Below are positions 1,187-63,529 of a stretch of DNA of 64,000 nucleotides, one piece after another. The notes under the pieces were generated by a model. That model made no database searches, was not told where the DNA came from, and saw only the letters and a list, made by a program, of their open reading frames with translations. The DNA lies in contig JAGOOK010000002.1 of the NCBI GenBank assembly GCA_017992555.1, forward strand, positions 21,180-85,179, given 5' to 3'. This DNA comes from Caldisericia bacterium (lineage in GTDB: Bacteria; Caldisericota; Caldisericia; JAAYUI01). The position numbers and the translations under genes were made by a program. Numbering within the stretch: position 1 is the first letter of the stretch; the number at the start of each line of letters is the position of its first letter.

Positions 1187-1872
1187 AGTTCCCTGAAGCG
1201 GTAACCCACCCCCCTGACGGTTTCGATGTAGTCCCCATATTCTCCAAGTTTTTTCCTGAGGCCAACAACCTGGACGTCGACCGATCTGTCTGTTACAGGA
1301 TAATCAAGTCCCTTTATTGCGTCTATGATTTGGTATCTTGTGAACACCCATCCAGGTTTTTTGGCGAGAAAATGGAGGATTGAAAATTCCGTATGGGTTA
1401 GTTCCACCAGAGAACCTTTTACAAATACCTTGAATCTTCCTGGATCAATCTCCATCTCGTCGTATCTGAGCGGGGCATTTTCGTCGGTTACAGTCTTGCC
1501 ACGTCTTCTGAGTACTGCCCTGATCCGTGAGACAAGCACCCTTGGACTGAATGGTTTTGTGACATAGTCATCAGCGCCAAGCTCAAGGCCTGCAACGATG
1601 TCTGCTTCCTCACCTTTTGCAGTGAGCATTATGATTGGTATTGACGATATAGACTGGTTTTTTTTGAATTCTTTACAGACATCCAGACCATCAATTCCCG
1701 GCAGCATGAGATCAAGCAGAATTATGTCAAAAGTTTTTGTTTTGATTATTTTGAGCGCGTCTTCCCCAGAAGTTGCAGTGGTCACATTAAAACCATTTTT
1801 TGCAAGGTTGTATCTAAGCAGTTCCAGAATGTCTTCTTCATCGTCCACAATAAGTATGTTTTCCCTGGGCAT
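1183..1872 (-). CDS. OmpR/PhoB-family response regulator (receiver plus winged-helix)
   Basis: Receiver motifs LIVDDEEDI, DIILLDLMLPGIDG and LTAKGEE are present, followed by a C-terminal winged-helix ending VRGVGYRF. The gene is translationally coupled to the downstream kinase. Confidence 0.9.
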   Translation of the reverse strand: MPRENILIVDDEEDILELLRYNLAKNGFNVTTATSGEDALKIIKTKTFDIILLDLMLPGIDGLDVCKEFKKNQSISSIPIIMLTAKGEEADIVAGLELGADDYVTKPFSPRVLVSRIRAVLRRRGKTVTDENAPLRYDEMEIDPGRFKVFVKGSLVELTHTEFSILHFLAKKPGWVFTRYQIIDAIKGLDYPVTDRSVDVQVVGLRKKLGEYGDYIETVRGVGYRFREL

Positions 1873-2009
1873 TTCCTACCTTCCGGTTCTTTGATGGCCC
1901 CAATTATTATTGATAATTGTAAGAAAAATGTGAGGAAATTAATAATATCTTTTTATTACTTTTTGAGTCAAACTGGTAAAAACCCGCCAGGTAATGGTTT
2001 TGGGTTGGC

Positions 2010-2234
2010 CTAGCGCTTTTTTCGGAGTGAATGTGCCCTGTTCACAAAAGCACAGCCTCTATTCCCTCTTCGCCTTGAAATCCAGAGCTTTTCGGAGACA
2101 CCGCCGGAGTTTGCCATGCAGATCTTGCATCCCCAATATGTGGTCGTCCACCATTTTGGCAGGGCAGCAGTCCTCACGCTGTCACAGATGTGCAGGGCGG
2201 TTGCTCTCTGGATTGAAGCTGGTTTTTTCTTCAT
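2010..2234 (-). CDS. small basic 74-aa protein with four Cys (putative zinc-binding), co-transcribed with the nitroreductase
   Basis: The nitroreductase TAA stop is followed by AAAGGAGACAAG and then ATG, a canonical Shine-Dalgarno with 5-nt spacing. The protein has Cys17, Cys37/Cys40 (CKIC) and Cys61. Confidence 0.45.
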   Translation of the reverse strand: MKKKPASIQRATALHICDSVRTAALPKWWTTTYWGCKICMANSGGVSEKLWISRRRGNRGCAFVNRAHSLRKKR

Positions 2235-2246
2235 CTTGTCTCCTTT

Positions 2247-2837
2247 TTAGCTGTCTTGAAGCGGTTTTGTGCGCTCAAGCTTTGGGTCAAATTTGTCAAT
2301 GCTTGCTATCTCATCGTTTGGGAGCCTCTCCGGCCTTGTTTTTTCATCTGCAATCTGTTTTTCGGACATAACCGAGTTGAGCTCTGCCGCGTGTTTCCCT
2401 ACATTGACCAGCGTAACGACTTGCCAGTCATCAGGTATCCCCAGAACTGCCCTGGTTTTTTTGGGGCTGTATCCTGCAATCGGGTGAGCAACCAGTCCGA
2501 GTTCTGTGGCCCTGAGTATCATGAATGCTACTGCCATGCCGGTGTCGAAGAGGTGATATTCCCTATCGTATATTACGCAGTCATTTTCCTTTTTGGACAG
2601 TACCACAACAATCATCGAATCTTTGAACGTCCATTCATTGCCCTTTGACATCACCTGCTGCATTTGAAGAAGTACATCCGGGTTTTTCACGAAAATAAAG
2701 CGCCATGGCTGATTGTTAAAGCATGACGGCGCAAGTTTTAGAAAACCAATCAGATCTTCGATGAGTGCATCAGTTATCTCTGCTTTTTCCAGCGATCTGT
2801 AAGCCCTTCTTGCCAAAATTGCGTCTTTTACATCCAT
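2247..2837 (-). CDS. nitroreductase-family protein
   Basis: Its length, the motifs RRAYRSL and NNQPWRFIFV, and a conserved C-terminal region are typical of the NADH-oxidase/nitroreductase fold. Confidence 0.7.
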   Translation of the reverse strand: MDVKDAILARRAYRSLEKAEITDALIEDLIGFLKLAPSCFNNQPWRFIFVKNPDVLLQMQQVMSKGNEWTFKDSMIVVVLSKKENDCVIYDREYHLFDTGMAVAFMILRATELGLVAHPIAGYSPKKTRAVLGIPDDWQVVTLVNVGKHAAELNSVMSEKQIADEKTRPERLPNDEIASIDKFDPKLERTKPLQDS

Positions 2838-3283
2838 TTTCCAAGCTCCCCAATTATCTCCGCAATATCAGGAAGTTCCGATATGGGATAGATTTTGATG
2901 AACCTTATGATTCCTTTTTTATCGACAATAATGTTTGCTCGCTCTGAGAAACCGTCATCTTTCCTGAATATGCCAAGCAGCGAGGCGAAATACCCATGGG
3001 GCCAGAAATCTGACAAGAGCGGTATTTTTTCTATTCCGAGTTTTTTTGCCCAGGCGTGTTTGCTAGGAACAGTGTCAACGCTCAGGCCGAGTGCAACGAC
3101 GCCCATCTTTTCAAAATCATTTGCATGTTCCTCCAGCGATTGCATCTGCTGGGCACAAACTTTTGTCCATGCCAGCGGGTGCCACGAGAGGAGGACCATT
3201 TTCCCTTCCAGCAATTTTTTGCTCCATTCTTTTTTGTTGTGGTCAGTCAGTGTGAAATCTGATAGTGTATCTCCAGTGTTCAT
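2828..3283 (-). CDS. thioredoxin-fold peroxiredoxin-like protein (AhpC/TSA/redoxin family)
   Basis: It is 151 aa with a WTKVC active-site-like motif in a redoxin-type context and overlaps the downstream nitroreductase by 10 nt. Confidence 0.55.
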   Translation of the reverse strand: MNTGDTLSDFTLTDHNKKEWSKKLLEGKMVLLSWHPLAWTKVCAQQMQSLEEHANDFEKMGVVALGLSVDTVPSKHAWAKKLGIEKIPLLSDFWPHGYFASLLGIFRKDDGFSERANIIVDKKGIIRFIKIYPISELPDIAEIIGELGKWM

Positions 3284-12935: not shown

Positions 12936-13427
12936 ATGGGTAAGAAAATTTTGGTGTGTTATGCAACGAGGTGTGGTTCAACTGGTGAAGTTGCTGAAAG
13001 AATTGCCAGCATCATCGAGTCTGACGGCCACACTGTTGATGTGTCACAAGTCAAAAGAAATATCGATATTGACGATTACGATGCTGTGGTTGTCGGGAGC
13101 GCAATAAGGATTGGAAAATGTCTTGGTGAGGCAGTAGAATTTGTAAAGCAAAGAAAACCTGATCTGCAAAAGAAAAAACTTTTTTATTTCGGCGTTTGTT
13201 TGATGATTACCATGCCAGATAAATTACAGGAAGTTCAGACATATCTTGATTCCATGATTGCCGAGTGCGAACCAGTTGCCAATGAAATATTTGCAGGCAA
13301 GGTAGATTTTAGCAAACTTTCATTTCCTATAAGGTTGCTCATGAAGCAAATGAAGACCCCAGAAGGTGATTTTGTAGAGTGGCAAAAAGTCGAATCTTGG
13401 GCCAAAATGATATCAAAAAGTATCTAA
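12936..13427 (+). CDS. flavodoxin-like protein
   Basis: An AAGGAG ribosome-binding site lies 6 nt before the ATG, and the N-terminus KILVCYATRCGSTGEVAE is a flavodoxin FMN-binding loop. Confidence 0.7.
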   Translation: MGKKILVCYATRCGSTGEVAERIASIIESDGHTVDVSQVKRNIDIDDYDAVVVGSAIRIGKCLGEAVEFVKQRKPDLQKKKLFYFGVCLMITMPDKLQEVQTYLDSMIAECEPVANEIFAGKVDFSKLSFPIRLLMKQMKTPEGDFVEWQKVESWAKMISKSI

Positions 13428-13958
13428 TATCATTTAATATATTGTTATCTAATGTAATAATAAAATTTATACATTTAGAGGCATATTAAATTATTAATTA
13501 AGCATATTTGTTAATAAAACGGCTATTTGATATATGTTAGTAATCTTAAAAATACAAAAATAGAATTATGTCATTTTTAATAGACTTATTATCTCTTATT
13601 GAATCAAAAAATGATATTTATATCTAAATAGTAATATGTTAGATATTAATTATATAAAGCACAATTTATAGTTATAAGAATTGATTAAGTTGTATTCAAG
13701 TTGTTTATTGGTTATGTTTTTGTTCCTATGCTACTGATTTGGGAATCTTTTTATAGCGTATGGCTTATAAAATACCTGGCACAGTTATTTCAAATTAATC
13801 TCAATAATAAAATATGTTGCATTTTACAATGTTTGTCGTCTTAACCTTGAAAGTTGACTCGCAATTGAAATGGTTTAAAATTTTTAAGCTGTTATAAATG
13901 CAAGGCAGAGCTAGGGCAGCCTCTAACAAAATCCAAACCAAAGCCCCCAGGAGGAGCA
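13428..13958. promoter_or_regulatory. extremely AT-rich 530-bp intergenic region upstream of the Ca-ATPase gene
   Basis: Composition is far below the window average, there is no ORF, and a GGAGGA ribosome-binding site lies at its 3' end before the GTG start. Confidence 0.4.
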
Positions 13959-16541
13959 GTGTCTTACATAGACATAACTAAGTTAAGAGGACTTTCACAG
14001 GAAGAGGCCGTAAAAAGATTGGCAACTGACGGACCAAATGAGTTACCATCTTCCAAAAGACGCAGTATTTTTCTCATTGTCTTTGAAGTTGTCAAGGAAC
14101 CAATGTTTCTTCTTCTTGTCTCTTGTGGGACCATATATCTTCTTCTTGGCGATCTCCAGGAAGCCATCATGCTTCTTTTCTTTGTGTTTGTTGTTATGGG
14201 AATAACAATTTTTCAGGAAAAGAAGACTGAGAGGGCGCTTGAGGCCCTTCGTGATCTTTCCAGCCCCAGGGCGCTCGTAATAAGGGGTGGCGCACAGCAA
14301 AGAATCGCAGGAAGAGATGTGGTAAGGGGTGATTTCCTCATTCTCCAGGAGGGCGACAGGATCCCAGCAGACTGCATTTTAATATCGTGCATAAACCTAA
14401 CTGTCGACGAATCGCTCTTGACTGGTGAATCAGTCCCTGTGAGAAAAACAAATTGCGATAATGAAGACGAGCCAATGGGTAAACCCGGCGGTGACGATCA
14501 GCCTTATGTTTTCTCTGGTACACTTGTTGTTTCAGGTCAGGGAGTGGCAATCACAAAGTCAACGGGTTCCAACACTGAAATAGGAAAAATTGGCAAGGCA
14601 TTGCAGAAGCTTGACAAGAATGATGACACAAGACTCCAGCACGAAATCTCAAGACTGGTCAGGAATGTTGCCTTCTTTGGCTTGGCCCTCTGTGTTGTTG
14701 TTTTTGCAATGTATGGGTTCACAAAAACTGACTGGCTTGGAGGACTCCTCGCTGGATTGACACTTGCCATGGCAGTGTTGCCGGAAGAATTTCCGGTGGT
14801 TTTGACAATATTCATGGCCCTGGGTGCATGGAGGATGTCAAAAAAAGACGTTCTCACAAGGAAGATGCCAGCAATAGAGACCCTTGGATCAGCAACCGTC
14901 TTGTGTGTTGACAAAACAGGGACATTGACACAGAACAAGATGACCGTTGTTGAGCTTATGACTGGTGGGAAGATCATTGGCCTCAAGGGCGATGAAAAGG
15001 AATTGCCCGAGGATTTCCACAGCCTTGCGGAATTTGCTGTCCTGGCCTCCGAAAAAAACCCTTACGAGCCAATGGACAGGGCGATCCGTGAACTTGGTGC
15101 AAAACATCTTGGTGGAACAGAACACCTCCATGATGATTGGGAATTTGTCCAGGAATACCCACTTTCGAAGGAACTATTTGCCATTTCCCAGGTGTGGAAA
15201 TCCACAAAAGGCGGGGGTTATGTTATTGCTGCAAAGGGTGCTCCCGAGGCCATTGCTGATTTGTGCCACCTGGACAAGCAGGCAGTTGAAGATATAAGCT
15301 CCCAAGTTTTCAAAATGGCCTCAGAAGGCCTGCGCGTTCTTGGTGTTGCAAGGGCCCATTTTGTGGAGTCCGGTTTGCCAAAAGTACAGCATGGTTTTGA
15401 TTTTGAATTCCTTGGGCTTGTTGGTTTCTTTGATCCTGTCAGGGAGAGTGTGCCCCAGTCAATCAAGGAATGCTATGAGGCAGGCATAAGGGTTGTAATG
15501 ATCACTGGTGACTATCCAGTAACTGCGTGCAAAATTGCAAGATCGATTGGCCTTGAAAATTCTGGTGAATATATCACTGGTCATGAACTTGACGAGATGT
15601 CCGATGAAGCATTGAACGAAAGAATTGGCAAGGTCAATGTTTTTGCTAGGGTTGTTCCAGAGCAAAAATTGAAGCTTGTCCAGGCGCTTAAAGCCAAAGG
15701 CGAGATCGTCGCAATGACGGGTGATGGTGTTAATGATGCTCCAGCCTTAAAAGCCGCAGACATTGGCGTTGCAATGGGTGGAAGGGGCACCGATGTCGCA
15801 AGAGAGGCGTCATCATTGGTGCTTTTAAAGGATGATTTTTCGTCGATCGTCGACTCTGTGAGAATGGGGCGAAGGATATACGAGAATATACAGAAGGCCC
15901 TTGCATACATAGTTGCAATACATGTTCCGATAGCTGGCATATCATTACTTCCAGTGCTTTTGAAATGGCCGACACTTTTTACACCAATGCATATCGTGTT
16001 CATGGAGCTTGTAATTGATCCAGCCTGTTCGATTGTTTTTGAGGCTGAACAGGGGGAAAAGAATTCCATGAAAAGACCACCAAGAAATCCAAATGCACCA
16101 CTTTTTGGAACGGGTGTTTTCATGCTTAGTGCGTTCCAGGGTGTTGGTGTTCTTCTGGTTATCTTGCTGGTCAATTTTGTCGCCCTGAGGATGGGGGGGG
16201 AAATGGAAGCAAGAACTCTCACTTTCACAACGCTTGTTGTCTCCAACCTTGCCCTTATTTTGGTCAACAGATCGTGGAACAAGGCCGCTTTTGAGATAGT
16301 AAAATCAAAAAACCAGGCTTTCTGGTGGGTATTCTTTGGGGCCATCGTCTTCTTGGGTCTTGTCCTTTACGTTCCGTTCCTTCAAAACCTCTTCAAATTT
16401 ACTACACTTCACGCCAGCGATATTTTGATCTGCTTTTGCGCTGGACTCCTGAGCGTTGTTTGGTTTGAAGTGTTTAAAAAGCTTCGGACCAGGAAAAGAA
16501 AGCTTGATGCCAAAGATAACAAAACTGGAGCAGTTCAATGA
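13959..16541 (+). CDS. calcium-translocating P-type ATPase (PMCA/SERCA-like, P2)
   Basis: It starts at GTG with GGAGGA upstream and carries the motifs CVDKTGTLT, MITGD and TGDGVNDAPALK, with a 10-TM architecture. Confidence 0.85.
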   Translation: MSYIDITKLRGLSQEEAVKRLATDGPNELPSSKRRSIFLIVFEVVKEPMFLLLVSCGTIYLLLGDLQEAIMLLFFVFVVMGITIFQEKKTERALEALRDLSSPRALVIRGGAQQRIAGRDVVRGDFLILQEGDRIPADCILISCINLTVDESLLTGESVPVRKTNCDNEDEPMGKPGGDDQPYVFSGTLVVSGQGVAITKSTGSNTEIGKIGKALQKLDKNDDTRLQHEISRLVRNVAFFGLALCVVVFAMYGFTKTDWLGGLLAGLTLAMAVLPEEFPVVLTIFMALGAWRMSKKDVLTRKMPAIETLGSATVLCVDKTGTLTQNKMTVVELMTGGKIIGLKGDEKELPEDFHSLAEFAVLASEKNPYEPMDRAIRELGAKHLGGTEHLHDDWEFVQEYPLSKELFAISQVWKSTKGGGYVIAAKGAPEAIADLCHLDKQAVEDISSQVFKMASEGLRVLGVARAHFVESGLPKVQHGFDFEFLGLVGFFDPVRESVPQSIKECYEAGIRVVMITGDYPVTACKIARSIGLENSGEYITGHELDEMSDEALNERIGKVNVFARVVPEQKLKLVQALKAKGEIVAMTGDGVNDAPALKAADIGVAMGGRGTDVAREASSLVLLKDDFSSIVDSVRMGRRIYENIQKALAYIVAIHVPIAGISLLPVLLKWPTLFTPMHIVFMELVIDPACSIVFEAEQGEKNSMKRPPRNPNAPLFGTGVFMLSAFQGVGVLLVILLVNFVALRMGGEMEARTLTFTTLVVSNLALILVNRSWNKAAFEIVKSKNQAFWWVFFGAIVFLGLVLYVPFLQNLFKFTTLHASDILICFCAGLLSVVWFEVFKKLRTRKRKLDAKDNKTGAVQ

Positions 16542-17058: not shown

Positions 17059-17180
17059 AACTGGGTCGGCATTTCATGGATAGAGTGGTTGCAAAGCGAA
17101 TAATTTTTGGACCATGCACTTGGGCATACACGGGGTGTTTATATTTTCTCAGAAACAAGTTATCATTTTACTGGTGAAAC

Positions 17181-17531
17181 ATGGAAGAAAACTTTCTTGG
17201 TGAATTCGAGCTTTCTTTAAAAGTGAACGACCTTGTGAGGTCAATGGATTTCTACCACAAACTTGGTTTTGAGAGGGTAGATGGAGAACCTGCAAAAGGG
17301 TGGGCTGTTCTCCGCTGCGGTGATCTAAGACTTGGCCTCTACCAGGGTCATCTTGAAACAAACCTCATGTCTTTCTTGGGTGGCAATGTCAAATCTATTG
17401 CACAGGATCTCAAATCAAAAAAAATTGAGATGTTTTCTGATGCCACACAGGAAAAAGACGGCAGTATGGGTGCAAAACTTGTCGACCCTGATGGAAACAT
17501 CATCTATTTCAACAGCTTTACAGACGAATAA
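17181..17531 (+). CDS. VOC-family protein
   Basis: It is 116 aa, and the glyoxalase-like pattern ends ...LVDPDGNIIYF. Confidence 0.65.
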   Translation: MEENFLGEFELSLKVNDLVRSMDFYHKLGFERVDGEPAKGWAVLRCGDLRLGLYQGHLETNLMSFLGGNVKSIAQDLKSKKIEMFSDATQEKDGSMGAKLVDPDGNIIYFNSFTDE

Positions 17532-17542
17532 ATGAGGTTACC

Positions 17543-22727: not shown

Positions 22728-22783
22728 GAGAATAGTCGACGATAATTTGCAAAATAAATGCAAAATGATAATGTATTATCGGG

Positions 22784-23938
22784 ATGAAAACAAAATTTGA
22801 CAAATTGCCTAAAGGGGATTCATTTGTTTGGATAATCGTTGTTTTGGCTGTTGTTTTTGCAATATGTTTTATTTTTGTCCCCCAAGACAAAAAACAGTAT
22901 AATGATATTGTCAGTTACTTCTTTTCTGCCGCACCACAAACAATGGGGGCGATACTTGGGATTGCATTATCGGCTTTATACATAATGATACCAAATTTAG
23001 CAAAAGGTGCTTTGTCTGAGCCCTTAAAAAAACTGTTGTTTTCAGATTATTGCTTAAAGAATTCGGTCAAATTTGGATTGGTTCCCATTTCTTCAATAAT
23101 TTTTATCCCTTTCAGCTCACTAAAAATGCCGCTTATTGTGGAAAAGATATCAATATCGTTAAGTTTATCATTGGTTTTTGCTTGTGGCATTTTGTCGATT
23201 TATTACCTGACAAAATTCATTACTGATCGGTACGAGCTTTATTCAAATTATAGGAAAATGTTGAATTCAGATCTAAATAAAACAGCTGATAGAAAAAGAA
23301 ATATCTTATTAATAGAACTAAAGATACTCCTTTTTATCGAAGGAAAAGAAGATGATGAAATTAGTACGTCAGAACAAGATGATGTTATAAAAGACATACT
23401 TAATCATCTAGAAAAATGGGATGACATAATTGTAGTTTCCCAGATAGCCTCAGATATAGTAAACAGTATAAAAAATAATAAAAAAGATATAAGTAGCTCT
23501 ATACAAAAGATTTATTACAAATTTACTGATTTAATTAGAAAAATAGATGTGCAAAAAAATAAGAGTTTTGAATATAAGAAAAATCATATTGATGATTACA
23601 TCGATGTTGCGATCAATTTTTGTTACCATATTGTTTCCCCTCGATTAGAAAATAGTATAGGAATTATTAATAAAATACCTGAAGATTTATATATAAGATC
23701 ACATAACCCAATAACAAATTACATTGAATTCCTAAGCCACTCATTTATTGATTTGTTTGATTTAAAGATGTATTTTGAAATAAATAAAAAAATAGAAAAT
23801 CATCATAAAGATAAATTGAGATATATCGCTTCGTATTTAAAAAAATTACAGGATCATGAAAAAGAAAGAATCTCAGTAGAAGTATACCAAGAATATATGA
23901 GCATATTAGATAAGCTTTTAGCTGACAAAAACCAATAA
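22784..23938 (+). CDS. hypothetical membrane protein (very AT-rich, Lys/Ile/Asn-rich); first gene of the AT-rich island
   Basis: Four N-terminal TM segments are followed by a long charged, helical cytoplasmic region. Composition is atypical versus the flanks. Confidence 0.5.
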   Translation: MKTKFDKLPKGDSFVWIIVVLAVVFAICFIFVPQDKKQYNDIVSYFFSAAPQTMGAILGIALSALYIMIPNLAKGALSEPLKKLLFSDYCLKNSVKFGLVPISSIIFIPFSSLKMPLIVEKISISLSLSLVFACGILSIYYLTKFITDRYELYSNYRKMLNSDLNKTADRKRNILLIELKILLFIEGKEDDEISTSEQDDVIKDILNHLEKWDDIIVVSQIASDIVNSIKNNKKDISSSIQKIYYKFTDLIRKIDVQKNKSFEYKKNHIDDYIDVAINFCYHIVSPRLENSIGIINKIPEDLYIRSHNPITNYIEFLSHSFIDLFDLKMYFEINKKIENHHKDKLRYIASYLKKLQDHEKERISVEVYQEYMSILDKLLADKNQ

Positions 23939-24099
23939 CAAAAAAGTAACTGACCAGATATAAACTGTCTACCTGCTGAACTATTATAAACCAGCGCTGG
24001 AAAACACGATCAAGTCGTGAATTTATAATTTATAAGTTTGTCCATTCATCTTGGATCGCATATACTTTTAAAAAGAGTATTTTATTATATTATAACAAC

Positions 24100-24531
24100 A
24101 TGTGGAAGAAAATCCTTGTTCAAGGCGTTTTACTAGCGCTTATGATATTGGCGTTTTTTCGCCTATATCTCTTTGCTTTCAACAAAGATGTCATATACGC
24201 TTACACCAGCATGAAGGAGTTTGCTGGTTTTATCCTGATTGCCGTTGTACTCAATTATCCTGTTTGTTATTTGTACAAGCGAATTTTCAAGAAACAAATT
24301 GAAAAAGACCAGGCATCACTCTATTCTAAAAGCTGGTTTGTCAGATTGGTTTGCGGGTTTGTTGTCATATTACTTGATTTATTTGTAATATATTTGTTCA
24401 ATGGTTTTGAACAAACAACTTTTGTTGCAGTATTGGTTATTTTTGTCGTATCATATGGGCTATTTGCCATATACGCCGTAATCCTTGAGTTAATAACAAA
24501 TATCTTGATGGTGGTAGAGAAAAGTAGTTGA
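24100..24531 (+). CDS. small 3-TM membrane protein, tandem paralog 1 of 4
   Basis: It carries the MWKKILV start and the shared core YLYKRIFKKQIEK...LYSKSWFVRLVCGFV...LFNGFEQT. Confidence 0.6.
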   Translation: MWKKILVQGVLLALMILAFFRLYLFAFNKDVIYAYTSMKEFAGFILIAVVLNYPVCYLYKRIFKKQIEKDQASLYSKSWFVRLVCGFVVILLDLFVIYLFNGFEQTTFVAVLVIFVVSYGLFAIYAVILELITNILMVVEKSS

Positions 24532-24532
24532 T

Positions 24533-24593
24533 CTTTGTAAAACCTCACGGCCCAACACAAAAACATGATTGAACCGTGAGTCCGCAAATTGCC
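24533..24593. repeat. hairpin-containing repeat copy A (GATCTTTGTAAAACCTCACGG...CCGTGAGTCCGCAAATTGCC) fused to the stop codon of paralog 1
   Basis: A near-identical copy lies at 26065..26126, and the inverted-repeat arms are CTCACGG/CCGTGAG. Confidence 0.7.
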
Positions 24594-24658
24594 TTCCCTT
24601 CATTGTAGATCTTATGTTTGCTATTTTATAAAAAGAGGATTTTTTTATAATAAAAAAC

Positions 24659-25072
24659 ATGGGGAAGAAAAAAATCTTTCAATATGTTTTCTCGATATTT
24701 TTGATACTGGCACTTGTAATTGCTTATTTTCTTATCTTCAAACCGGCATCCCACATAAGCCTTAAGAACATCCTTTCTGACATTCTTTTTATAACGATTT
24801 ATCTTGCCATCTACTATTTGTATAAGCTAATCTTTAATGTAAAAATTGAACAGGGCCGTGTTCCGCTTTACTCCAGAAGATGGTTTATCAGGCTCGTTTG
24901 TGGATTTATTACCATTGCGTTTGCTTCGTTTCAGATATATCCATTGTTTAATGGTTTTGAGCAAACAAGTATCGACACAACCTTGATTGCTTTTGCCGCA
25001 TCATACGGATCGTTTATTTTCTTTGTTGGAGTTCTTGAGTTGATTTATTTGGAGATGAAAAGGAGTAATTAA
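24659..25072 (+). CDS. small 3-TM membrane protein, tandem paralog 2 of 4
   Basis: It carries the shared core LYSRRWFIRLVCGFITIAF...LFNGFEQTS. Confidence 0.6.
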   Translation: MGKKKIFQYVFSIFLILALVIAYFLIFKPASHISLKNILSDILFITIYLAIYYLYKLIFNVKIEQGRVPLYSRRWFIRLVCGFITIAFASFQIYPLFNGFEQTSIDTTLIAFAASYGSFIFFVGVLELIYLEMKRSN

Positions 25073-25095
25073 ATGTTTTTTTCAATCTCTACCCT

Positions 25096-25117
25096 CTATT
25101 GCAGGTATTGTAGAAAG
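25096..25117 (+). promoter_or_regulatory. conserved 22-mer CTATTGCAGGTATTGTAGAAAG, promoter-like, upstream of paralog 3
   Basis: An identical 20/22-mer lies at 25578..25599. It is followed by TATATAAT about 8 nt before the ATG. Confidence 0.45.
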
Positions 25118-25131
25118 TATATAATAAAAAC

Positions 25132-25554
25132 ATGTGGAAAAAAATTCTTGTTCTAAGCGCTTTTATTATAATTTCGATACTAATACTTTACTTCATTAGG
25201 TATTTCATTTTCGCACTTTGTCTCACGTTTCTCCAAATTTGCGTAAAAAATGTCTTTTTTATTGCTATTGCCATGCTGATTTATTTCCCAATTTACTGTT
25301 TATACAGAGTAGTTTTCAAGATAAAAGATGAACAGGGCCACGTGCCACTTTATTCCAGGAGCTGGTTTATAAAGCTTGTTTGTGGGTTTGTTACTATCGC
25401 GTTTGATTTATTTTTTATCCATCCGCTATTTAATGGTTTTAAGCACTTGTATATTAAAATTAGTTTAATTGTTTTTGTCACGATTTATATTTTGTTTATT
25501 ATATATGTTGGAGCTTTTGAGTTGGTTTGTTGGGTGATGAAAAAGAGCAATTAA
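25132..25554 (+). CDS. small 3-TM membrane protein, tandem paralog 3 of 4
   Basis: It carries the MWKKILV start and LYSRSWFIKLVCGFVTIAF...LFNGFKH. Confidence 0.6.
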   Translation: MWKKILVLSAFIIISILILYFIRYFIFALCLTFLQICVKNVFFIAIAMLIYFPIYCLYRVVFKIKDEQGHVPLYSRSWFIKLVCGFVTIAFDLFFIHPLFNGFKHLYIKISLIVFVTIYILFIIYVGAFELVCWVMKKSN

Positions 25555-25577
25555 GCATTTTTTTGAATTCCCACCTT

Positions 25578-25599
25578 TTATTGCAGGTATTGTAGAAAG
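25578..25599 (+). promoter_or_regulatory. second copy of the conserved TTATTGCAGGTATTGTAGAAAG element, upstream of paralog 4
   Basis: It is identical to the core at 25096..25117, and a TATAAT box lies at 25611..25616 just before the ATG at 25623. Confidence 0.45.
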
Positions 25600-25622
25600 A
25601 GAATATTTTGTATAATAGCAAT

Positions 25623-26066
25623 ATGTGGAAAAAAATCCTTGTTCTAAGCATTTTATTGGCGATTGTTCTTATGGCATTTTTGAATTTATGTGGCCGTGCT
25701 TTATTTAATGATGACGTATATGCTTGTATTAGAACAAATGAATTTCCTGTTTTTATACTGTTTGCCGTTTTATCCGGTTGTCCCACTATCTATCTATACA
25801 AGCGAATTTTCAAAAAAAAGATTGAAAAAAATCCAACATCGTTTTATTCCAAAAGTTGGTTTATAAAGCTTGTTTGCGGGCTTGTTGTTATATCGACTGA
25901 TATAATTTTGATCTATCTCTTACGCAGTCATCGACATCCCATTTTTACAGAGATATCATGGGTTATCTTTATATTATCGTATGGGTTATTTGCCACATAC
26001 ACCATAATGACTGAGCTGATAAATAATATTTTGGTGACGCTAGAGGCCATAGAGAAAAATGGCTGA
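25623..26066 (+). CDS. small 3-TM membrane protein, tandem paralog 4 of 4
   Basis: It carries the MWKKILV start and FYSKSWFIKLVCGLVVIS. The track ORF starts upstream at 25608. Confidence 0.6.
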   Translation: MWKKILVLSILLAIVLMAFLNLCGRALFNDDVYACIRTNEFPVFILFAVLSGCPTIYLYKRIFKKKIEKNPTSFYSKSWFIKLVCGLVVISTDIILIYLLRSHRHPIFTEISWVIFILSYGLFATYTIMTELINNILVTLEAIEKNG

Positions 26067-26126
26067 TCTTTGTAAAACCTCACGGTCCAACCATGTTTTT
26101 GTGTTGGACCGTGAGTCCGCAAATTG
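26065..26126. repeat. hairpin-containing repeat copy B (perfect 13-bp stem CTCACGGTCCAAC/GTTGGACCGTGAG) fused to the stop codon of paralog 4
   Basis: It is near-identical to copy A and closes the paralog array. Confidence 0.7.
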
Positions 26127-26160
26127 CCCCTTTTGGTTGGTTTGAGCACTTCCTACATCG

Positions 26161-26451
26161 TCACGGCTGTCCTTCGAGCCCCTCGCCTTCCTCTGTTTCC
26201 CCCTCCTCGTTGCGGATCCTGTATCTGTACTGATTGCCTTCGCCTTCCTCGTTCTCTTCACCTTCTTCACCAGGCGGCATCTGGAATTCCTGGCCATTCT
26301 GGAAACCTCCTGGTGGCCTTCCTCTTCCTTCGCCACGTTCTCCAGAACTCCAGAAACCAACAACTTGTGCCAGCTGGATCAATCCAATGAAAAGAACAAC
26401 AAAAAGAATTCCTGCGATATAAGGCTTTATTTTCATTTTTTCACCATCCAA
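26161..26451 (-). CDS. small membrane-anchored protein with Gly/Glu-rich acidic tail
   Basis: An N-terminal TM helix is followed by low-complexity EGEENEEGEGN...EEGETEEGEG. It overlaps the 5' end of the NapH-like gene, suggesting an operon. Confidence 0.4.
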   Translation of the reverse strand: MDGEKMKIKPYIAGILFVVLFIGLIQLAQVVGFWSSGERGEGRGRPPGGFQNGQEFQMPPGEEGEENEEGEGNQYRYRIRNEEGETEEGEGLEGQP

Positions 26452-27223: not shown

Positions 27224-27497
27224 GCTACAAAAATTCCTCCTGACTTTTTATTAATAAAATCGCCATGATTTCTAATACTACGATTTATAGTAAAAAGTCA
27301 GGGTGGTCGAGTTAACCTTGGTTGTAACAAAATTTCAATCAATTTATTGGGTGGTGTCCAATCTTTGAAGTCGGAACATTAATAAGGTTAAAGAAATCCA
27401 GAATAATAATTATCATAATATTTAATTTAATTTAATGATCAATTCTTGATGCCAAATAACGTCATGGTACTCGTTTAGACAGAAAGGAGGTGGAGAG

Positions 27498-27686
27498 ATG
27501 CCTTATCAGCACAATATAAATTCAATAAAGGTATCAGTTGAAAGTGGCTTTGTCAATACGGAAATCATGGAACCCATTTCTGGCTTGTCAGTTGTCTGGA
27601 TAGACCAACAAAACTACAATCCTGCTACCATGGAAGTCTGTGCGTGTCCAAATTACAGGTGCTGGACCAATAATGCAATGGTCTGA
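27498..27686 (+). CDS. candidate RiPP precursor peptide (62 aa, Cys-containing C-terminal core ...TMEVCACPNYRCWTNNAMV)
   Basis: A strong ribosome-binding site AAGGAGGTG lies 6 nt before the ATG. It is small, has a leader-like N-terminus, and sits immediately upstream of the rSAM/SPASM enzyme. Confidence 0.55.
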   Translation: MPYQHNINSIKVSVESGFVNTEIMEPISGLSVVWIDQQNYNPATMEVCACPNYRCWTNNAMV

Positions 27687-27693
27687 TGGGATT

Positions 27694-27740
27694 AATACAA
27701 AAAGAGGGGGAGGTATTTATCCCCCCTCTTTTTGTATTGA
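27694..27740 (+). terminator. intrinsic terminator/attenuator hairpin between precursor and rSAM gene
   Basis: A 17-bp stem AATACAAAAAGAGGGGG/CCCCCTCTTTTTGTATT has a GC core and a trailing TTTTTGTATT. It is followed by the GAAGGAGG ribosome-binding site of the next gene. Confidence 0.7.
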
Positions 27741-27749
27741 AGGAGGATC

Positions 27750-29084
27750 ATGGGCTTTAGGTTTTCAAAATTTATTATTGCCAAAGAATTGGATGAAAAT
27801 AAATATGTTTTGATGTCTACAATATCCGGTTCCATAGTCGTAATTGATAAAAAGCTGATCGGTCTTATAAACAGTGGCAATTTACCGGAAGAAGAGAAAA
27901 TATACAAGGAATTGTCAAATGCGTTCCTGTTAGTTGACGAAAATTTTGATGAAAAATCTTTTCTGCTTAAAAAATTTTCCAGAGAAACATGGAAAAATGA
28001 TACCCTTGATGTAACGATAGCTCCATCTTTTGCGTGTAATTTTGCTTGTCCGTACTGTTATGAGGCTAGAGATGATCGCGTCATGGATGAAGGAACATTA
28101 AAAAATCTGGTCAAGTTCATTCAAAATCATTTAAAAGAGTTTGATATTGGTTATTTTGTCATGGCTTGCTATGGCGGGGAACCTCTTTTATTTTCTGACC
28201 ATTTCCAATATATCTATGAGGAAATTTCAAAAACGAATCCTTCGGTAAAGATATCTCCGAGAATGACCACCAATGGGTCGTTGCTGGGGAAAAAGCTTGG
28301 TGGATTCATGGAAGCTGTGCCATTGGAAAGGGTACAGGTGACAATACACGGGGACAAAAAGAACCATGATTCAAAAAGGTTCTACATAGATGGAAAACCA
28401 TCCTATGAAGATGTTGTGAATGGAATAGGGGAGGCAATCAATAGAAAGATCCCAAATATTGAGATCAGGGTGAATATTGATCTGGAGAATGTCGCATCAT
28501 TGGAAAACCTCTTGACGGACTTGGGTAGAAGGGGGTTTTCAAACCATGAAAATTTGCGTGTTTACGCTTATCCTGTTGTCCACATGACTCCGGAATCCCT
28601 CGGATACGAAAACAAGTGCCTGTCTATTGACAGTTACTTTGAAAAGATAACTGGAATCATTGAAATAATCAATTCTTATGGTTTTTGTGGGGGAGCTAAA
28701 CATATAAAAAAATACATAAAAAATCTTGTGTTGTCAAATCTTTGTGGTGTTGGCACAAAGGGTTTTTATACAGTATCACCCGATGGCGCAATCGGGACTT
28801 GCTGGGAATTTATTGGGAGAGAAGGTTTTGATATAGGAAATGTGAATTTCAGCGTGCCCATTGACTGCATGAAAGAAAAGGTGTGGATTGATGCAAGGAT
28901 CTCAAAGGTCAAGCGTTGCTTGGATCTTGAATGTCCTCTTGTTCCAAGTTGTGCTGGTGGATGTGTGGCACAGAGTTTTTCTGAAAGAGGAAGTTTAGGC
29001 GAACCTGCTTGTTTTAAAAAACCGGAACAGATCGCAGAATATCTTAGATTCTATGTGGATATGAGCATGAAATATCCAATCTGA
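27750..29084 (+). CDS. radical SAM enzyme with N-terminal RRE-like extension and C-terminal SPASM/twitch Cys-rich domain (peptide-modifying maturase)
   Basis: The CxxxCxxC motif (CNFACPYC) is at about residue 95 rather than the N-terminus, and the ~90-aa N-terminal region is PqqD/RRE-like. C-terminal Cys clusters are present (CGVGTKG...GTCWEF, CLDLECPLVPSCAGGCVAQ). Confidence 0.8.
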   Translation: MGFRFSKFIIAKELDENKYVLMSTISGSIVVIDKKLIGLINSGNLPEEEKIYKELSNAFLLVDENFDEKSFLLKKFSRETWKNDTLDVTIAPSFACNFACPYCYEARDDRVMDEGTLKNLVKFIQNHLKEFDIGYFVMACYGGEPLLFSDHFQYIYEEISKTNPSVKISPRMTTNGSLLGKKLGGFMEAVPLERVQVTIHGDKKNHDSKRFYIDGKPSYEDVVNGIGEAINRKIPNIEIRVNIDLENVASLENLLTDLGRRGFSNHENLRVYAYPVVHMTPESLGYENKCLSIDSYFEKITGIIEIINSYGFCGGAKHIKKYIKNLVLSNLCGVGTKGFYTVSPDGAIGTCWEFIGREGFDIGNVNFSVPIDCMKEKVWIDARISKVKRCLDLECPLVPSCAGGCVAQSFSERGSLGEPACFKKPEQIAEYLRFYVDMSMKYPI

Positions 29085-29101
29085 TTTTTATTTAATGGTT
29101 T

Positions 29102-48474: not shown

Positions 48475-49590
48475 TCATTCACGCATTGGGGCAAAAAACC
48501 TGGCGATAAGGACTGCCCCGTCAGTACCACGAATATGACAATTGGCCTTAAGAAATTTGCATGCATCAGCAACGGGAACATATAGTCTATCGTTTATTAT
48601 TGTGGGAGCTTCTGATAAATCTTTCTCGACACCATTTACCAGCACTTTTTTGCTATCTGCAGTGAATTTCAACTCAACAAGCTCAATTTCGGAACTTTTG
48701 AGTTGGCACAATCTTTTTATGGTGCAGGATTTGCTGTCATTATAAATCATTGGAGAAAAAAGCACTTCCGAGAGAAAGCGAATATCAATCAGCATTTCAC
48801 CGCTCATCTCCCTTCTTGATGTTAACGCGTTTTCGGCCCATTCGCGTTGTTGCCCGGCGAGACAATATTTGCCAGGCCCATATCCTGTTTGAAGATAGCC
48901 CTGGCCAAAATCATATCTACTATAAGATATTTCAGCCATTCCATCCAGACCAGGATATTCATGAATATTGCACAAATCGGGATTAAATGCCTCGGCCCTT
49001 GTTCTTTGGTGCATTACGCCATAGTATTCGTAGACCTCAAAATTGAAGTCATTGTCTACGATTGAGAAAGTGCCGTAGGGATATATTTTATCGCGCATGG
49101 AGCCTGCTCGATTGAAGTAATGATGCTCTGGAAAATCCAGTGAATATCTAATATATTCCCAACCCCTGTCGCCCAGGAAAATCCCAAGTGCCACTTCCTT
49201 AAAGTTTTTGCTATTGTTGCCAATCTTTGCATTTATCATGGGAGACAAACAGAGCAGGATTTTTTCAATAATCTTGGGATCATTTTGTTTGATTTTGATA
49301 GGGTTGCCATTTTCATCGAATTTTGGGGCTACAATATTTGTCCCATCTTGATCTTTTATCTCGAATTCAAAAAAAGTTATGGCTCCTTCATAATACCTGA
49401 AAAGTGGCGATGGCTCCTTGTACTCGATTTTTTGTGGCCCATCATACCCGTATGCCACAATATCAAAATACCTGTCGCGAGTGTTGAAATATTTTTCACT
49501 CAAACTGGCAGTTTTGCCGGCACCTGTTGGATTGAGCACAAAAAACATTGAAATTACAATGGCAATCAGAATACTTACAATTTTTCTCAT
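48475..49590 (-). CDS. secreted hypothetical protein, tandem paralog B
   Basis: It is alignable to paralog A throughout and ends ...CKFLKANCHIRGTDGAVLIARFFAPMRE. Confidence 0.5.
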   Translation of the reverse strand: MRKIVSILIAIVISMFFVLNPTGAGKTASLSEKYFNTRDRYFDIVAYGYDGPQKIEYKEPSPLFRYYEGAITFFEFEIKDQDGTNIVAPKFDENGNPIKIKQNDPKIIEKILLCLSPMINAKIGNNSKNFKEVALGIFLGDRGWEYIRYSLDFPEHHYFNRAGSMRDKIYPYGTFSIVDNDFNFEVYEYYGVMHQRTRAEAFNPDLCNIHEYPGLDGMAEISYSRYDFGQGYLQTGYGPGKYCLAGQQREWAENALTSRREMSGEMLIDIRFLSEVLFSPMIYNDSKSCTIKRLCQLKSSEIELVELKFTADSKKVLVNGVEKDLSEAPTIINDRLYVPVADACKFLKANCHIRGTDGAVLIARFFAPMRE

Positions 49591-49727
49591 CGTTCCTCCT
49601 GTAATTCCCAGTTTTTTCAGACATGTTTATTATAAGCAAAACCTTGCTGTTGCAATATCGAAAATATCCTCACAGTCATATATAACAAAACCTTCTAATA
49701 CTTTATGATAGTTTTTTAATCAGTGGA

Positions 49728-52709: not shown

Positions 52710-52750
52710 TTTATGTTCTTATCACCTACAGATTGTACTTGCAATAATTT

Positions 52751-53182
52751 TTATACAATATCCTTATCTTTACCGTTTTGGCTGAAATTCATTTCTTCAA
52801 AGATTTTCCTGGCGATTTGTCTGTTGGCCTCTTTAGTTTGCATCTTGAAAGTAAAGAGATCGAGCAAAACAAAAACAGAAAAAAATAAATTGAGTATCAT
52901 GTAGATTATTGCCAATGTTGAATTATCTAAGTTGTAAGGTGTTAATTTGATGTATATACGCACCAGGGCCGCTCCAAGATAAATAAATCCAATTATTGGT
53001 TTTCGGAGATAAAATTTATGGATTCCCAGTCCGCCTAAAAAGAAACATACCCAGAATGTTACCCAATGGTTGAGTCTTGATTCCAGATATCTGATTTTAA
53101 ACTCATCACGCCTGTCAAATGCAACATTTTGAATATTTTCATCAATAATTTCACTATCAATCCTATTAATGATGTCTTCCAT
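52751..53182 (-). CDS. TM2-domain membrane protein
   Basis: The TM2 signature GGLGIHKFYL lies between two TM helices. Confidence 0.6.
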   Translation of the reverse strand: MEDIINRIDSEIIDENIQNVAFDRRDEFKIRYLESRLNHWVTFWVCFFLGGLGIHKFYLRKPIIGFIYLGAALVRIYIKLTPYNLDNSTLAIIYMILNLFFSVFVLLDLFTFKMQTKEANRQIARKIFEEMNFSQNGKDKDIV

Positions 53183-53263
53183 GATTTAAATCTCCCCTTT
53201 TCTCAACAAATTAAAAACCCAATCTAATATTGGTGTTATGCAATACGATCATTTTGTTTTTTT

Positions 53264-53290
53264 CTCAATCCCGCTTGAAGCGGGATTGAG
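53264..53290. repeat. perfect inverted repeat CTCAATCCCGC-ttgaa-GCGGGATTGAG between the two TM2 genes
   Basis: An 11-bp perfect stem is flanked by a T-run (5') and an A-run (3'). It lacks a trailing U-tract on either strand, so it is probably not a canonical terminator. Confidence 0.5.
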
Positions 53291-53309
53291 AAAAAGGGCT
53301 ATTTTTTTA

Positions 53310-53776
53310 TTACAGGCCTGATGAAATTGTTTTAGCTATTTCTGTGTTGGCCTCTTTGGTCTGTTTTTTGAATGTGCAGATATCAACAAGAATCAGTATT
53401 GCAAGAACTAGGGCGAGCAAACCACCCAAGACAAAGAAGATGGAGCCAGCAAAAAGGTTCCCAAACATCATATTACCATAATTGCCACTCTCAAACATTT
53501 CCATCCTGAAACCGCTAAACATGCTTGCAATCAATACGAAGTAACCAATTATAAAGAATAAAATTGAGCCAAGGCCCATCCCCAGATAAACAAAACCAGC
53601 ATTTTTCTGGCCAAGATAAAATTTGTGGATGCCGTAGTATCCTGCGGCAAGGCATATGCCAGATTTATCCAGTGGTTTTTCCTGTGTCCATAATATTCAA
53701 CCTTGAATTTCATCTGCTGGTCTTCTGGCAGAGAACTTGCGTATTGCTGAATGATGTCCTGATCAATATTGTCCAT
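53310..53776 (-). pseudogene. TM2-domain paralog interrupted by a -1 frameshift near 53655-53668
   Basis: Two overlapping ORFs (53549..53776 and 53310..53579) align collinearly to the neighbouring TM2 protein. Inserting a single nucleotide near the ...HWINL codons (53655-53668) restores ...HWINLGICLAAGYYGIHKFYLG. Confidence 0.6.
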
Positions 53777-53916
53777 GTACCCTCCGTTTAGGTTAAGATT
53801 TATATTTTTATATTAGGGTCATTTTTGATGCTGTCAAACCTTATGCTTGAGACAAACATGTCAATTTTCCAACAAGTTAAAAACTTTTTTCTCTTCAAAC
53901 TGTCAAATAGTATTGC

Positions 53917-62143: not shown

Positions 62144-63382
62144 GTGAAAAGGATTCTTGTTTTTTTGATTTGTGGATTGATAGTGTTGACTGTGTCGGCA
62201 AACTCTGGCATTTGCATTGCTCCTCCGGTTTCAAAAAAAGACATCGCAAAACCAGTCCCCAAAGAGACCCAGAAGAAAATCTGGAAACTGGGCGACAGGA
62301 TTGTTCCTGGCCCCATCCCGCCATCACTTGGAGCACCGGAGCCAGCGCTGGACATCTGGCGCGGAGAGGTTTTTGGCAGGGAAGCCGGTCTTTCGCTCCA
62401 GCTCGATGTCATAAAGCCAAAAGCCTGCAGGGGCCAGACAGTCCCGATTGCGGTTTATTTCCATGGCGGTGGATGGCGGAGTGGCAACAGGTATGGAATC
62501 TACAATACAATAAGAGTCGAACGCAAACTCCTGTACCAGATGGGTTTTGCAATAGCAAGCGTCGACTACAGGCTCTCCCAGCAGGCAAAGCACCCGGCGC
62601 AGATCAATGACTGCAAGCTTGCGATCCGCTATCTTCGCAAAAATGCAAAGAAATTCGGCATTGATCCGAACCGGATTGGTGTCTGGGGCCATTCTGCAGG
62701 CGGCCACCTGGTTGCTTTCCTTGGAACGGCCAACGAAAAAGACGGGCTTGAGGGCCCAGGCCTCCCAGGAATCTCAAGCAAACCCCAATGTGTTGTAGAA
62801 CTGTATGGCCCGACCGACCTCACCCAGCCAGTGGGCGAAAATGGCTGGAGGGGCATAACCGAGGAACTGCTTGGGTGCAAGCCCAAGGTTTGCCTGGAAA
62901 AGGCCATCAATGCGTCGCCTGTCACCTATGCCGATAAAGATGACCCGCCAGAGCTGATAATCCACGGCGAAAATGACTCGGCAATCCTGTATCTTCAGGG
63001 TGAGTTGTTCGCAAGAAAATTGAAACAGGTTGGTGTCACATGCGCGCTGATAAAGGTCAAGAACGCGGAGCACCAGTTCACGCCGTACCCTGGCTATCTG
63101 AAAATCAGTCCTCCGCTGGCGAGGATCCGCTGGGTGATTGCCGCGCAGTTCTTCCGCTATCTGGAACCGGCGCTAAAGGGTGACCTGGATGTCGATGGAA
63201 GGGTCAACCTGAGGGACTTTGTCCTGATGTGCAAACAGAGCGGCTCTGTGGGCGCCGGAATGGACGGTTCGCCCGGGCCGGAGTGGTGGAACCCGATGGC
63301 CGATTTGAATTCAGACGGGCTGATTGATTTGAAAGATATGACGCTACTGCTGGGGATTGCTCTGCATACATCTGTAAAATAA
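62144..63382 (+). CDS. secreted alpha/beta-hydrolase esterase/lipase with C-terminal dockerin-like domain
   Basis: A signal peptide, the oxyanion motif HGGGW and the nucleophile elbow GHSAGG are present. The C-terminus carries two Ca-binding loop repeats, [10 protein letters not shown] and [12 protein letters not shown]. Confidence 0.7.
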
Positions 63383-63529
63383 TTCTGGAAAACCTACAAA
63401 AAAACCTAGAATATTCTTTTTTTATGAACCCTATATTTTTATTGTAATGCATTTTGATGGTATTGGGAAGAAGAGGAAAAACTTCTATTGCAGGTGAATA
63501 TCATCCGCAGGCGGTTTAGAATTGCCAAA

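Follow-up and report, generated by a model that had tools for sequence, protein, structure and literature searches.

How does a bacterium come to hold, in one AT-rich tract of its chromosome, a long membrane-protein gene followed by a string of small related ones, and what might such a string do? The question is raised by a 64,000-nucleotide (nt) stretch of DNA, called the window throughout and at its full length, from an uncultured Caldisericales bacterium, whose lineage comes from anaerobic digesters. At 22.74-26.13 kb of the window, between a GyrI-like gene and a convergent operon for a 96-amino-acid (aa) protein and a NapH-like protein, lies an island with a gene for a 384-aa protein and four small paralogous genes, here named A to D. 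A sequence-only reading of the DNA had described this AT-rich island of about 3.4 kb and proposed that it might be an acquired module of an undescribed family. Comparison with syntenic contigs indicates rather a long-standing, hypervariable accessory locus in a fixed chromosomal slot, whose products appear to form two undescribed membrane-protein families confined to one lineage.

All five open reading frames (ORFs) that had been listed, the large one and the four same-strand paralogs starting at 24100, 24659, 25132 and 25623, are present on the plus strand. From ORFs, paralog alignment and hydropathy, the small genes encode proteins of 143 aa (A, 24100..24531), 137 aa (B, 24659..25072), 140 aa (C, 25132..25554) and 147 aa (D, the terminal cassette, 25623..26066). 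The start of D is taken at the conserved MWKK at 25623, the mechanical ORF beginning at a TTG at 25608. Their tandem paralogy, as first claimed, is true: identities are 40-52%, and 25 columns are invariant, including a YLYK...F...E...YS.WF..LVCG core. The shared core originally drawn for them holds in its YLYK...WF..LVCG part, and fails in its LFNGF part, since D reads LLRSHRH there. Comparison of the DNA reveals two duplicate pairs, A/D and B/C, each with a common 3′ flank. Four transmembrane (TM) helices per protein, rather than the three counted at the outset, are predicted by hydropathy and by the helices of AlphaFold models, an AlphaFold2 model of a paralog having a predicted local distance difference test score (pLDDT) of 60. 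By the positive-inside rule, the basic loop between TM2 and TM3 should face the cytoplasm. The ratio of nonsynonymous to synonymous substitution rates (dN/dS) is 0.04-0.19 in this loop, versus 0.3-1.0 in TM1, TM2 and outer loop 3. Over whole intact paralogs it is 0.15-0.39 versus 0.04-0.11 for flanking genes, and by this measure the intact paralogs are real genes under purifying selection, more relaxed than that on the flanks. Alignment of the paralogs with the N-terminal domain of the large protein using hhalign gave no relationship.

The large gene (22784-23938, plus strand) encodes, as had been claimed, a 384-aa membrane protein with four TM segments and a long tail. Residues 1-170 (22784..23293) make up a conserved N-terminal domain (N-domain) with four hydrophobic segments and a basic N-terminus. 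Residues 171-384 (23294..23938) make up a polymorphic helical tail rich in Lys, Asn, Ile and Glu, with a guanine-plus-cytosine (GC) content of 0.245 overall and 0.20 at third codon positions (GC3). The four TM helices and the basic N-terminus predict a cytoplasmic position for this tail, and such a position speaks against a secreted toxin. The N-domain is 85-86% aa identical to those of contigs L002 and L010 (dN/dS 0.16-0.25), and its motif FFSAAPQTMGAI is kept even in a 33%-identical 643-aa variant in L028. The tail is 38% aa identical to those of L002 and L010, with the synonymous divergence (dS) saturated; the flanks there are 93-98% aa identical. Across haplotypes, 4-5 unrelated tail types of 210-470 aa are found. 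No Pfam domain was detected in the 384-aa protein or its variants, and none of the LXG, Rhs, CdiA, PAAR or other trafficking or toxin type. The AlphaFold2 model has a pLDDT of 53, with an all-helical tail of low confidence. The sole PDB sequence-profile match among the island families, to 8vvi_F (E-value 0.005, alignment accuracy 0.70), would make the tail MotA/ExbB-like; it was rejected as compositional, of the coiled-coil type.

The history of the slot can be read from syntenic contigs (L numbers), drawn from metagenome assemblies and classified by tblastn. Their common flanks are 92-100% aa identical, and consist on the left of a P-type ATPase gene and the GyrI-like gene, and on the right of the convergent 96-aa/NapH-like operon and, past it, a cytidine-deaminase gene. 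Within these limits the slot is filled, always with AT-rich DNA, in every relative found (three GTDB species-level genomes, with flanks about 88-98% identical), and its contents fall into at least seven haplotypes. H1, that of the window, carries the N-domain with tail C1 and the array A B C D. A close version of it (H1′, in L001, 98.4% nt identical across the slot) has the same large gene and A B C followed by a frameshifted D. In H2 (L002-L009), tail C2 is followed by B A; in H3 (L010-L012), tail C2′ by A B D′; and in H4 (L013-L015), a divergent N-domain with tail C3 by D″. In H5 (L016-L019, L025, L029) a minus-strand HSDR_N-like gene stands instead of the large gene, with a frameshifted C and then D. 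H6 (L027, L030) has no large gene and the array C B D″, and H7 (L028, L026) has the 643-aa variant and the array B ... D″. A slot thus holds one to four cassettes, and each haplotype retains at least one intact paralog copy. The first paralog begins 8-18 nt past the stop of the large gene in L010 and L013. The cassette next to the large gene is A after tails C1 and C2′, B after C2 and the 643-aa variant, and D″ after C3, and no co-variation of tail type with the adjacent paralog is seen across haplotypes. The replacement gene of H5 (L016 8402-9577, minus strand, also in L017-L019, L025 and L029) encodes a 391-aa protein with an HSDR_N domain, the nuclease-like N-terminal domain of type I restriction R-subunits, and a Gln/Glu-rich linker.

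Individual cassettes differ in how well they are kept. Orthologs of A in L001, L007 and L010 are 90-99% identical (dN/dS 0.15), and those of B in L001, L002, L010, L027 and L028 are 88-100% identical. L001 and L027 have an intact C; in the L016-type haplotype this gene carries a frameshift (P0016). D is 98% identical in L016, 63-65% identical in L010, L013 and L027, and frameshifted in L001. The alleles of D are older than the flanks, because dS between D and D′/D″ is 0.73 versus 0.26-0.28 in the adjacent NapH-like gene, which is 95-98% identical. The frameshifted C (P0016) recurs in 34 index blocks and P0024, which belongs to a second locus and is likewise frameshifted, in 59, and such broken copies recur across many independent assemblies. 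Individual copies decay while intact ones stay under purifying selection.

Was the island then acquired by this strain? Its base composition is certainly deviant. In 1-kb steps the GC content is 0.46 at 22-23 kb, drops to 0.275, 0.336 and 0.307 over 23-26 kb and is then back at 0.488; the value of 0.275, at 23-24 kb, is the window minimum, and both sides lie at 0.44-0.49. The island as a whole is at 0.28-0.34, versus about 0.45. The low GC reaches the codon level, since GC3 within the island is 0.20-0.39 (0.25 in the whole 384-aa gene, 0.20 in its tail and 0.33-0.39 in the paralogs) versus 0.52 in the P-type ATPase gene and 0.69 in the GyrI-like gene. These two profiles confirm the drop in composition and make it atypical for the genome, so that the deviant base composition and codon use expected of horizontal islands are both there. 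Other hallmarks of such islands (an integrase or transposase, a tRNA target, flanking repeats, presence or absence among close relatives) were not found. The left junction falls directly after the stop codon of the GyrI-like gene, with no repeats noted; the tRNA search and the Rfam scan gave nothing at the island; and no integrase, transposase or toxin Pfam domain occurs within 10 kb on either side across the syntenic loci, which upholds the initial statement that integrase, tRNA and toxin-like genes are missing. With the slot occupied in all relatives found, the island is not a recent strain-specific insertion, and an acquired island in that sense has to be given up. The opposite expectation, synteny conserved across the lineage, comes true for the slot and the family, and fails for the content.

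Several observations suggest how the content changes. Residues 1-60 of family member P0012, which sits on a 1-kb metagenome contig, match P0010 at 98% identity, and its residues 61-147 match the D allele of L027 at 100%; the junction lies inside the conserved central block. Cassette A in L002 and L007 is preceded by the exact promoter block found before C in the window. This mosaic and this swap of promoter blocks point to recombination and are consistent with exchange through conserved blocks. The conserved 5′ part, made of the MWKKIL start and the promoter block, and the central YLYK...WF.RLVCGF block are the junctions seen in these two cases, and could be the means by which cassettes are gained and lost. 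The small family has a second locus that behaves similarly. It comprises P0023 and a 175-aa paralog as a tandem pair, with a GC of 0.35 versus 0.46 in its flanks, and adjoins a carboxylesterase gene in strains 95% identical to the window at 54-63.4 kb. In the window the pair is deleted, and a remnant is left at 63204..63452 (minus strand), where the 95%-identical relatives carry a P0023/P0024-type gene and the 175-aa gene. Since this locus too is tandem and dispensable, tandem organisation and dispensability are properties of the four-TM family itself. The deletion scar (window 63204-63490, minus strand) was delimited against L020-L024, in which the pair comes after a methyltransferase gene and a YkoF-like gene; past 63490 the window has a fasciclin-like ORF in place of the pair.

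Each cassette also seems to carry its own expression signals. A -10-like box lies 6 nt before the ATG of A (TATTAT, 24088..24093), C (TATAAT, 25120..25125) and D (TATAAT, 25611..25616), and 7 nt before that of B (TATAAT, 24646..24651), all on the plus strand. On position-specific inspection, 18 of the 20 cassettes of nine loci have a hexamer of the form TAnnnT (in most cases TATAAT) at -12/-13 relative to the ATG, and lack a Shine-Dalgarno site. No Shine-Dalgarno site was seen in the five island genes, and many other genes of the window have one of the GGAGG type. A generic promoter and terminator scan showed no enrichment of promoters over shuffled sequences. From the position and regularity of the boxes, we infer that each cassette is a leaderless transcription unit with its own promoter. 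The same TATAAT-like geometry occurs at two other genes of the window, starting at 9953 and 62144. A hairpin with a perfect 13-bp stem (26079..26115) separates the D gene from the 96-aa/NapH-like operon that converges on it; it folds on both strands, at -26.7 kcal/mol on the plus strand (z-score -7.0) and -26.9 kcal/mol on the minus strand (z-score -5.5), and is likely a bidirectional terminator. A degenerate copy of this terminal hairpin, at -13.4 kcal/mol, follows A (24544..24580, plus strand) and is a relic carried along with the A/D duplication. The two hairpins have identical stems and direct flanks, and their loops, ACAAAAACATG and CATGTTTTTGT, are reverse complements of each other, a sign that, once A/D had been duplicated, the loop may have been inverted through the palindrome or by a template switch.

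To what known families do these proteins belong? Pfam, NCBIfam, PADLOC and PHROGs gave nothing above noise, whether for the proteins of the island, for the 16 members of the small family or for the other large-protein variants. In PADLOC-DB v2, no match was obtained for the paralogs, the large variants of the window, L002, L013 and L028, the HSDR_N-like protein, or the proteins p341 and p353 of a neighbouring slot. Among the bacteriocin-immunity profiles of Pfam and NCBIfam (EntA_Immun, CPBP/Abi, colicin immunity), only sub-threshold hydrophobic matches to unrelated TM regions appeared, and DUF443 matched none of the 16 family members at E<=1. A word-indexed search of 5.8 billion proteins returned 16 clusters for the paralog profile, all orthologs of A-D, and five clusters for the large protein. 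An exhaustive HMMER profile pass over 1.84 billion representatives added one genuine remote homolog, P0023 (E-value 7e-8); P0022, a second hit of this pass, was discarded as a spurious repetitive translation. Every match that bears an organism name is a Caldisericales or Caldisericia metagenome-assembled genome (MAG). A scan of 185,579 GTDB species found four loci in three Caldisericales/Caldisericota MAGs, and a metagenome scan added at least three loci. IMG/VR viral contigs, GenBank phages and PLSDB plasmids hold no relatives of either family. The impression that the family was undescribed is therefore sound.

Some known systems nevertheless share features with the island. In Staphylococcus aureus, strings of 2-16 non-identical polytopic membrane immunity genes (tsaI) lie downstream of the polymorphic toxin gene for TspA (PMC9484751). 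The tsaI paralogs have one conserved block and a variable remainder; TspA is a membrane-depolarising type VII secretion system (T7SS) toxin, and TsaI belongs to DUF443 (PMC9484751). The immunity arrays of esaG and tipC are likewise driven by recombination (PMC9484751). In organisation, the tsaI strings are the closest documented case to the island array. Both have a larger polymorphic protein gene followed by same-strand polytopic paralogs, a copy number that varies among strains (here one to four cassettes of four TM each, over at least seven haplotypes), and a conserved block with a variable rest. The island differs in having neither an LXG domain nor a T7SS context, in paralogs with four TM and no DUF443 match, in a large protein whose tail is predicted to be cytoplasmic and whose gene can be absent, and in its phylum, Caldisericota. 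Colicin and peptide-bacteriocin immunity proteins are small inner-membrane proteins of about 110-180 aa with 3-4 TM, whose specificity is thought to lie in the membrane or outer face. The paralogs resemble them in size and polytopic inner-membrane topology, but in the Pfam scan show no detectable homology, have no colicin or bacteriocin gene and no plasmid context, and are tandem and multi-copy. Another comparison is the streptococcal blp locus, a mosaic bacteriocin-immunity region. As in esaG, tipC and blp arrays, conserved homology blocks flank variable segments in the island cassettes; EsaG and TipC are, however, soluble or lipid-anchored and act against known toxins, and the island array has no known toxin. 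The RexB protein of phage lambda, of 144 aa and four TM, is similar in size and four-helix topology, and the island neighbourhood is accessory, AT-rich and variable as for abortive-infection genes. Unlike these, the island proteins have no homology to RexB, no RexA-like partner and no PADLOC match, and form tandem arrays. Overall, the behaviour of the locus fits a known kind, that of recombining immunity-type arrays, built here from new protein families in a poorly known phylum.

What, then, do these proteins do? The best reading, which we hold tentatively and by analogy, is that the locus holds immunity-type membrane proteins as a repertoire subject to recombination, and that no toxin is encoded in cis. 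Several features together argue for such a repertoire: polytopic paralogs that stand in tandem without being identical, a copy number and an order that are specific to the strain, old alleles, a constrained inner face against a variable membrane and outer face, and, amid frequent pseudogenes, one or more intact copies in each haplotype. In mechanism, the small proteins would be protective membrane proteins. Their conserved basic cytoplasmic loop and TM3 would form a common scaffold or a contact with a partner, and the variable TM1, TM2 and outer loops would set specificity against membrane-acting antagonists, which might be toxins or bacteriocins made by kin strains, or perhaps proteins of phages. 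Frequency-dependent selection would lead strains to hold different repertoires, with the cognate antagonist encoded elsewhere than in cis. The large protein would be a separate polymorphic partner with a cytoplasmic tail, and not a secreted toxin. The resemblance to immunity arrays noticed in the sequence-only reading is thus borne out in copy number, order and alleles, which all vary, and in the polymorphic larger gene upstream, but not in any linked toxin, bacteriocin, secretion or export gene. It counts against this immunity-type repertoire that no toxin, bacteriocin precursor, export or secretion gene occurs in the island or within 10 kb of it, the search of other strains over the same distance for toxin or bacteriocin genes, advised at the outset, having also come back empty. 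The spacers hold no plausible small peptide ORF that would be credible as a bacteriocin; known immunity families show no sequence match; and dN/dS is never clearly above 1. Some mosaics, such as P0012 on its 1-kb contig, could be assembly chimeras, and the function of the island proteins is entirely inferred.

A defence against phages, which the earlier suggestion of a phage-exclusion module also implied, seems unlikely. Here the large protein would be anchored in the membrane as a sensor or effector, an arms race with phages having diversified its cytoplasmic tail, and the small proteins would be membrane effectors or agents of superinfection exclusion. The predicted cytoplasmic position of the polymorphic tail, the HSDR_N protein at the position of the large gene in one common haplotype, the AT-rich composition, and a second variable slot 1 kb away that makes the region behave like a hotspot for accessory cargo would all suit this explanation. 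No phage gene is linked to the island, however, and neither viral contigs nor phage or plasmid records hold relatives. PADLOC is negative for the large variants and the paralogs alike, tandem arrays of 2-4 divergent effector paralogs are atypical of known defence systems, and the array persists without the large gene in L027 and L030. The last point weighs also on a polymorphic toxin locus of the TspA/TsaI type, in which the large protein would be the toxin (an N-terminal module for delivery or anchoring joined to a variable toxic C-terminus) and the paralogs its cognate and orphan immunity proteins, because two haplotypes (H5, H6) lack the large gene or have another in its place. We consider such a locus very unlikely, even though the large protein joins a conserved N-domain (85-87% aa) to a hypervariable C-terminus (38% aa, several unrelated types), a same-strand string of non-identical polytopic paralogs lies downstream of it, after a gap of 8-18 nt in L010 and L013, and S. 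aureus offers an analogue (PMC9484751). Four TM and a basic N-terminus would put the tail in the cytoplasm, trafficking and toxin domains such as LXG, Rhs, CdiA and PAAR are missing, no secretion-system genes lie within 10 kb on either side, and there is no co-variation between tail type and the paralog next to it.

Beyond the convergent operon, a candidate precursor of a ribosomally synthesized and post-translationally modified peptide (RiPP) is encoded. This Cys-rich 62-aa protein (27498-27686, plus strand), ending in ...EVCACPNYRCWTNNAMV, has a strong GGAGG site, and is followed by a hairpin of -30.7 kcal/mol (27692-27740) and a 444-aa radical SAM/SPASM maturase (27750-29084, plus strand). 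The maturase resembles RiPP families, its best matches being CefB, TIGR04463 and PapB-type maturases, each below the family cut-off, and the two genes (27498-29084) are likely a RiPP pair, with no exporter or protease nearby. If their product were a membrane-active peptide, the four-TM proteins, D especially, could protect the producer: a D-type gene is intact in all four haplotypes with the pair, and the near-identical L001, which has lost the pair, has a frameshifted D. This is most improbable: the precursor hardly varies across haplotypes (a single A/S change, in its core), whereas identity among D alleles is 63-98%; strains that lack the pair (L002, L016) have arrays all the same; and the native convergent operon separates the array from the pair. 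The association with intact D, 4/4 with the pair against 1/3 without, is not significant and is confounded by linkage and shared ancestry. Or the proteins might have no part in conflict at all, being fast-evolving, dispensable, lineage-specific membrane proteins, for example of envelope, stress or transport function, under relaxed constraint and tandem-repeat recombination in an AT-rich region. Constraint that is relaxed relative to the flanks, a dN/dS never above 1, frequent pseudogenes and deletions, and the lack of any linked conflict-system gene are what one would expect of such proteins. We doubt it, given that every haplotype keeps at least one intact copy, that the cytoplasmic loop is strongly constrained, and that the allelic lineages are older than the divergence of the flanks (dS 0.73 vs 0.27), which simple relaxed drift leaves unexplained. 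A bolder proposal, and a speculative one to be doubted in like measure, is a self-contained Caldisericota conflict system, in which an anchored protein with an interchangeable cytoplasmic tail (sensor or toxin) would work with shuffled leaderless four-TM cassettes (immunity or pore-type effectors), a new toxin-immunity or abortive-infection architecture made of orphan families.

Caldisericota are abundant in anaerobic digesters and almost entirely uncultured, and to our knowledge essentially nothing is known of their strain-level conflict or accessory biology. In this setting, at least seven haplotypes in one slot, with near-identical flanks and older alleles, amount to a natural experiment. 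The haplotype diversity and the alleles older than the flanks point to frequency-dependent selection on inner-membrane proteins. The locus is also a compact case of cassette evolution, with exchange apparently occurring via promoter/5′ and central blocks and with leaderless-looking signals. If the proteins do provide immunity, a membrane-acting antagonist must exist in these communities, still to be discovered; if they do not, the locus keeps its use as a strain marker and as an example of orphan genes that turn over rapidly. Its narrow distribution and putative function limit its general importance.

Features around the island complete the picture of the region. The 96-aa protein of the convergent operon (window 26161-26451, minus strand) shares its orientation with the NapH-like gene, whose end it overlaps. 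After a single N-terminal TM helix comes a low-complexity tail rich in Gly, Glu and Pro; the protein is 94-98% aa conserved in all haplotypes and has no family match. The second variable slot lies between the NapH-like and cytidine-deaminase genes, at 27224-29101 in the window, 13289-14724 in L001, 12252-13515 in L002 and 12099-13362 in L016. Its cargo is either the RiPP pair, or a 74-aa protein with two TM and an N-terminally anchored protein of 329/341 aa, or a pair of 100-aa and 353-aa proteins. This cargo is AT-rich and without family match, and the proteins s74, p100, p341 and p353 are unrelated to the paralogs or the large N-domain. Even the window and L001, with flanks 98.4-99.7% identical, differ in this cargo. 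Elsewhere, L002 has a 408-aa ammonium-transporter gene (1853-3079) between acetyltransferase and glyoxalase genes, absent from the window (about 17060-17540) and from L001. The window has two further patches of low GC. One, at 13001-14000 (0.31), includes about 530 nt without an ORF of at least 60 aa upstream of a P-type ATPase gene, and has no Rfam match; the other, at 49001-54000 (0.33-0.38), carries the gene of a 993-aa surface-type protein with beta-propeller and Cu_amine_oxidN1 features.

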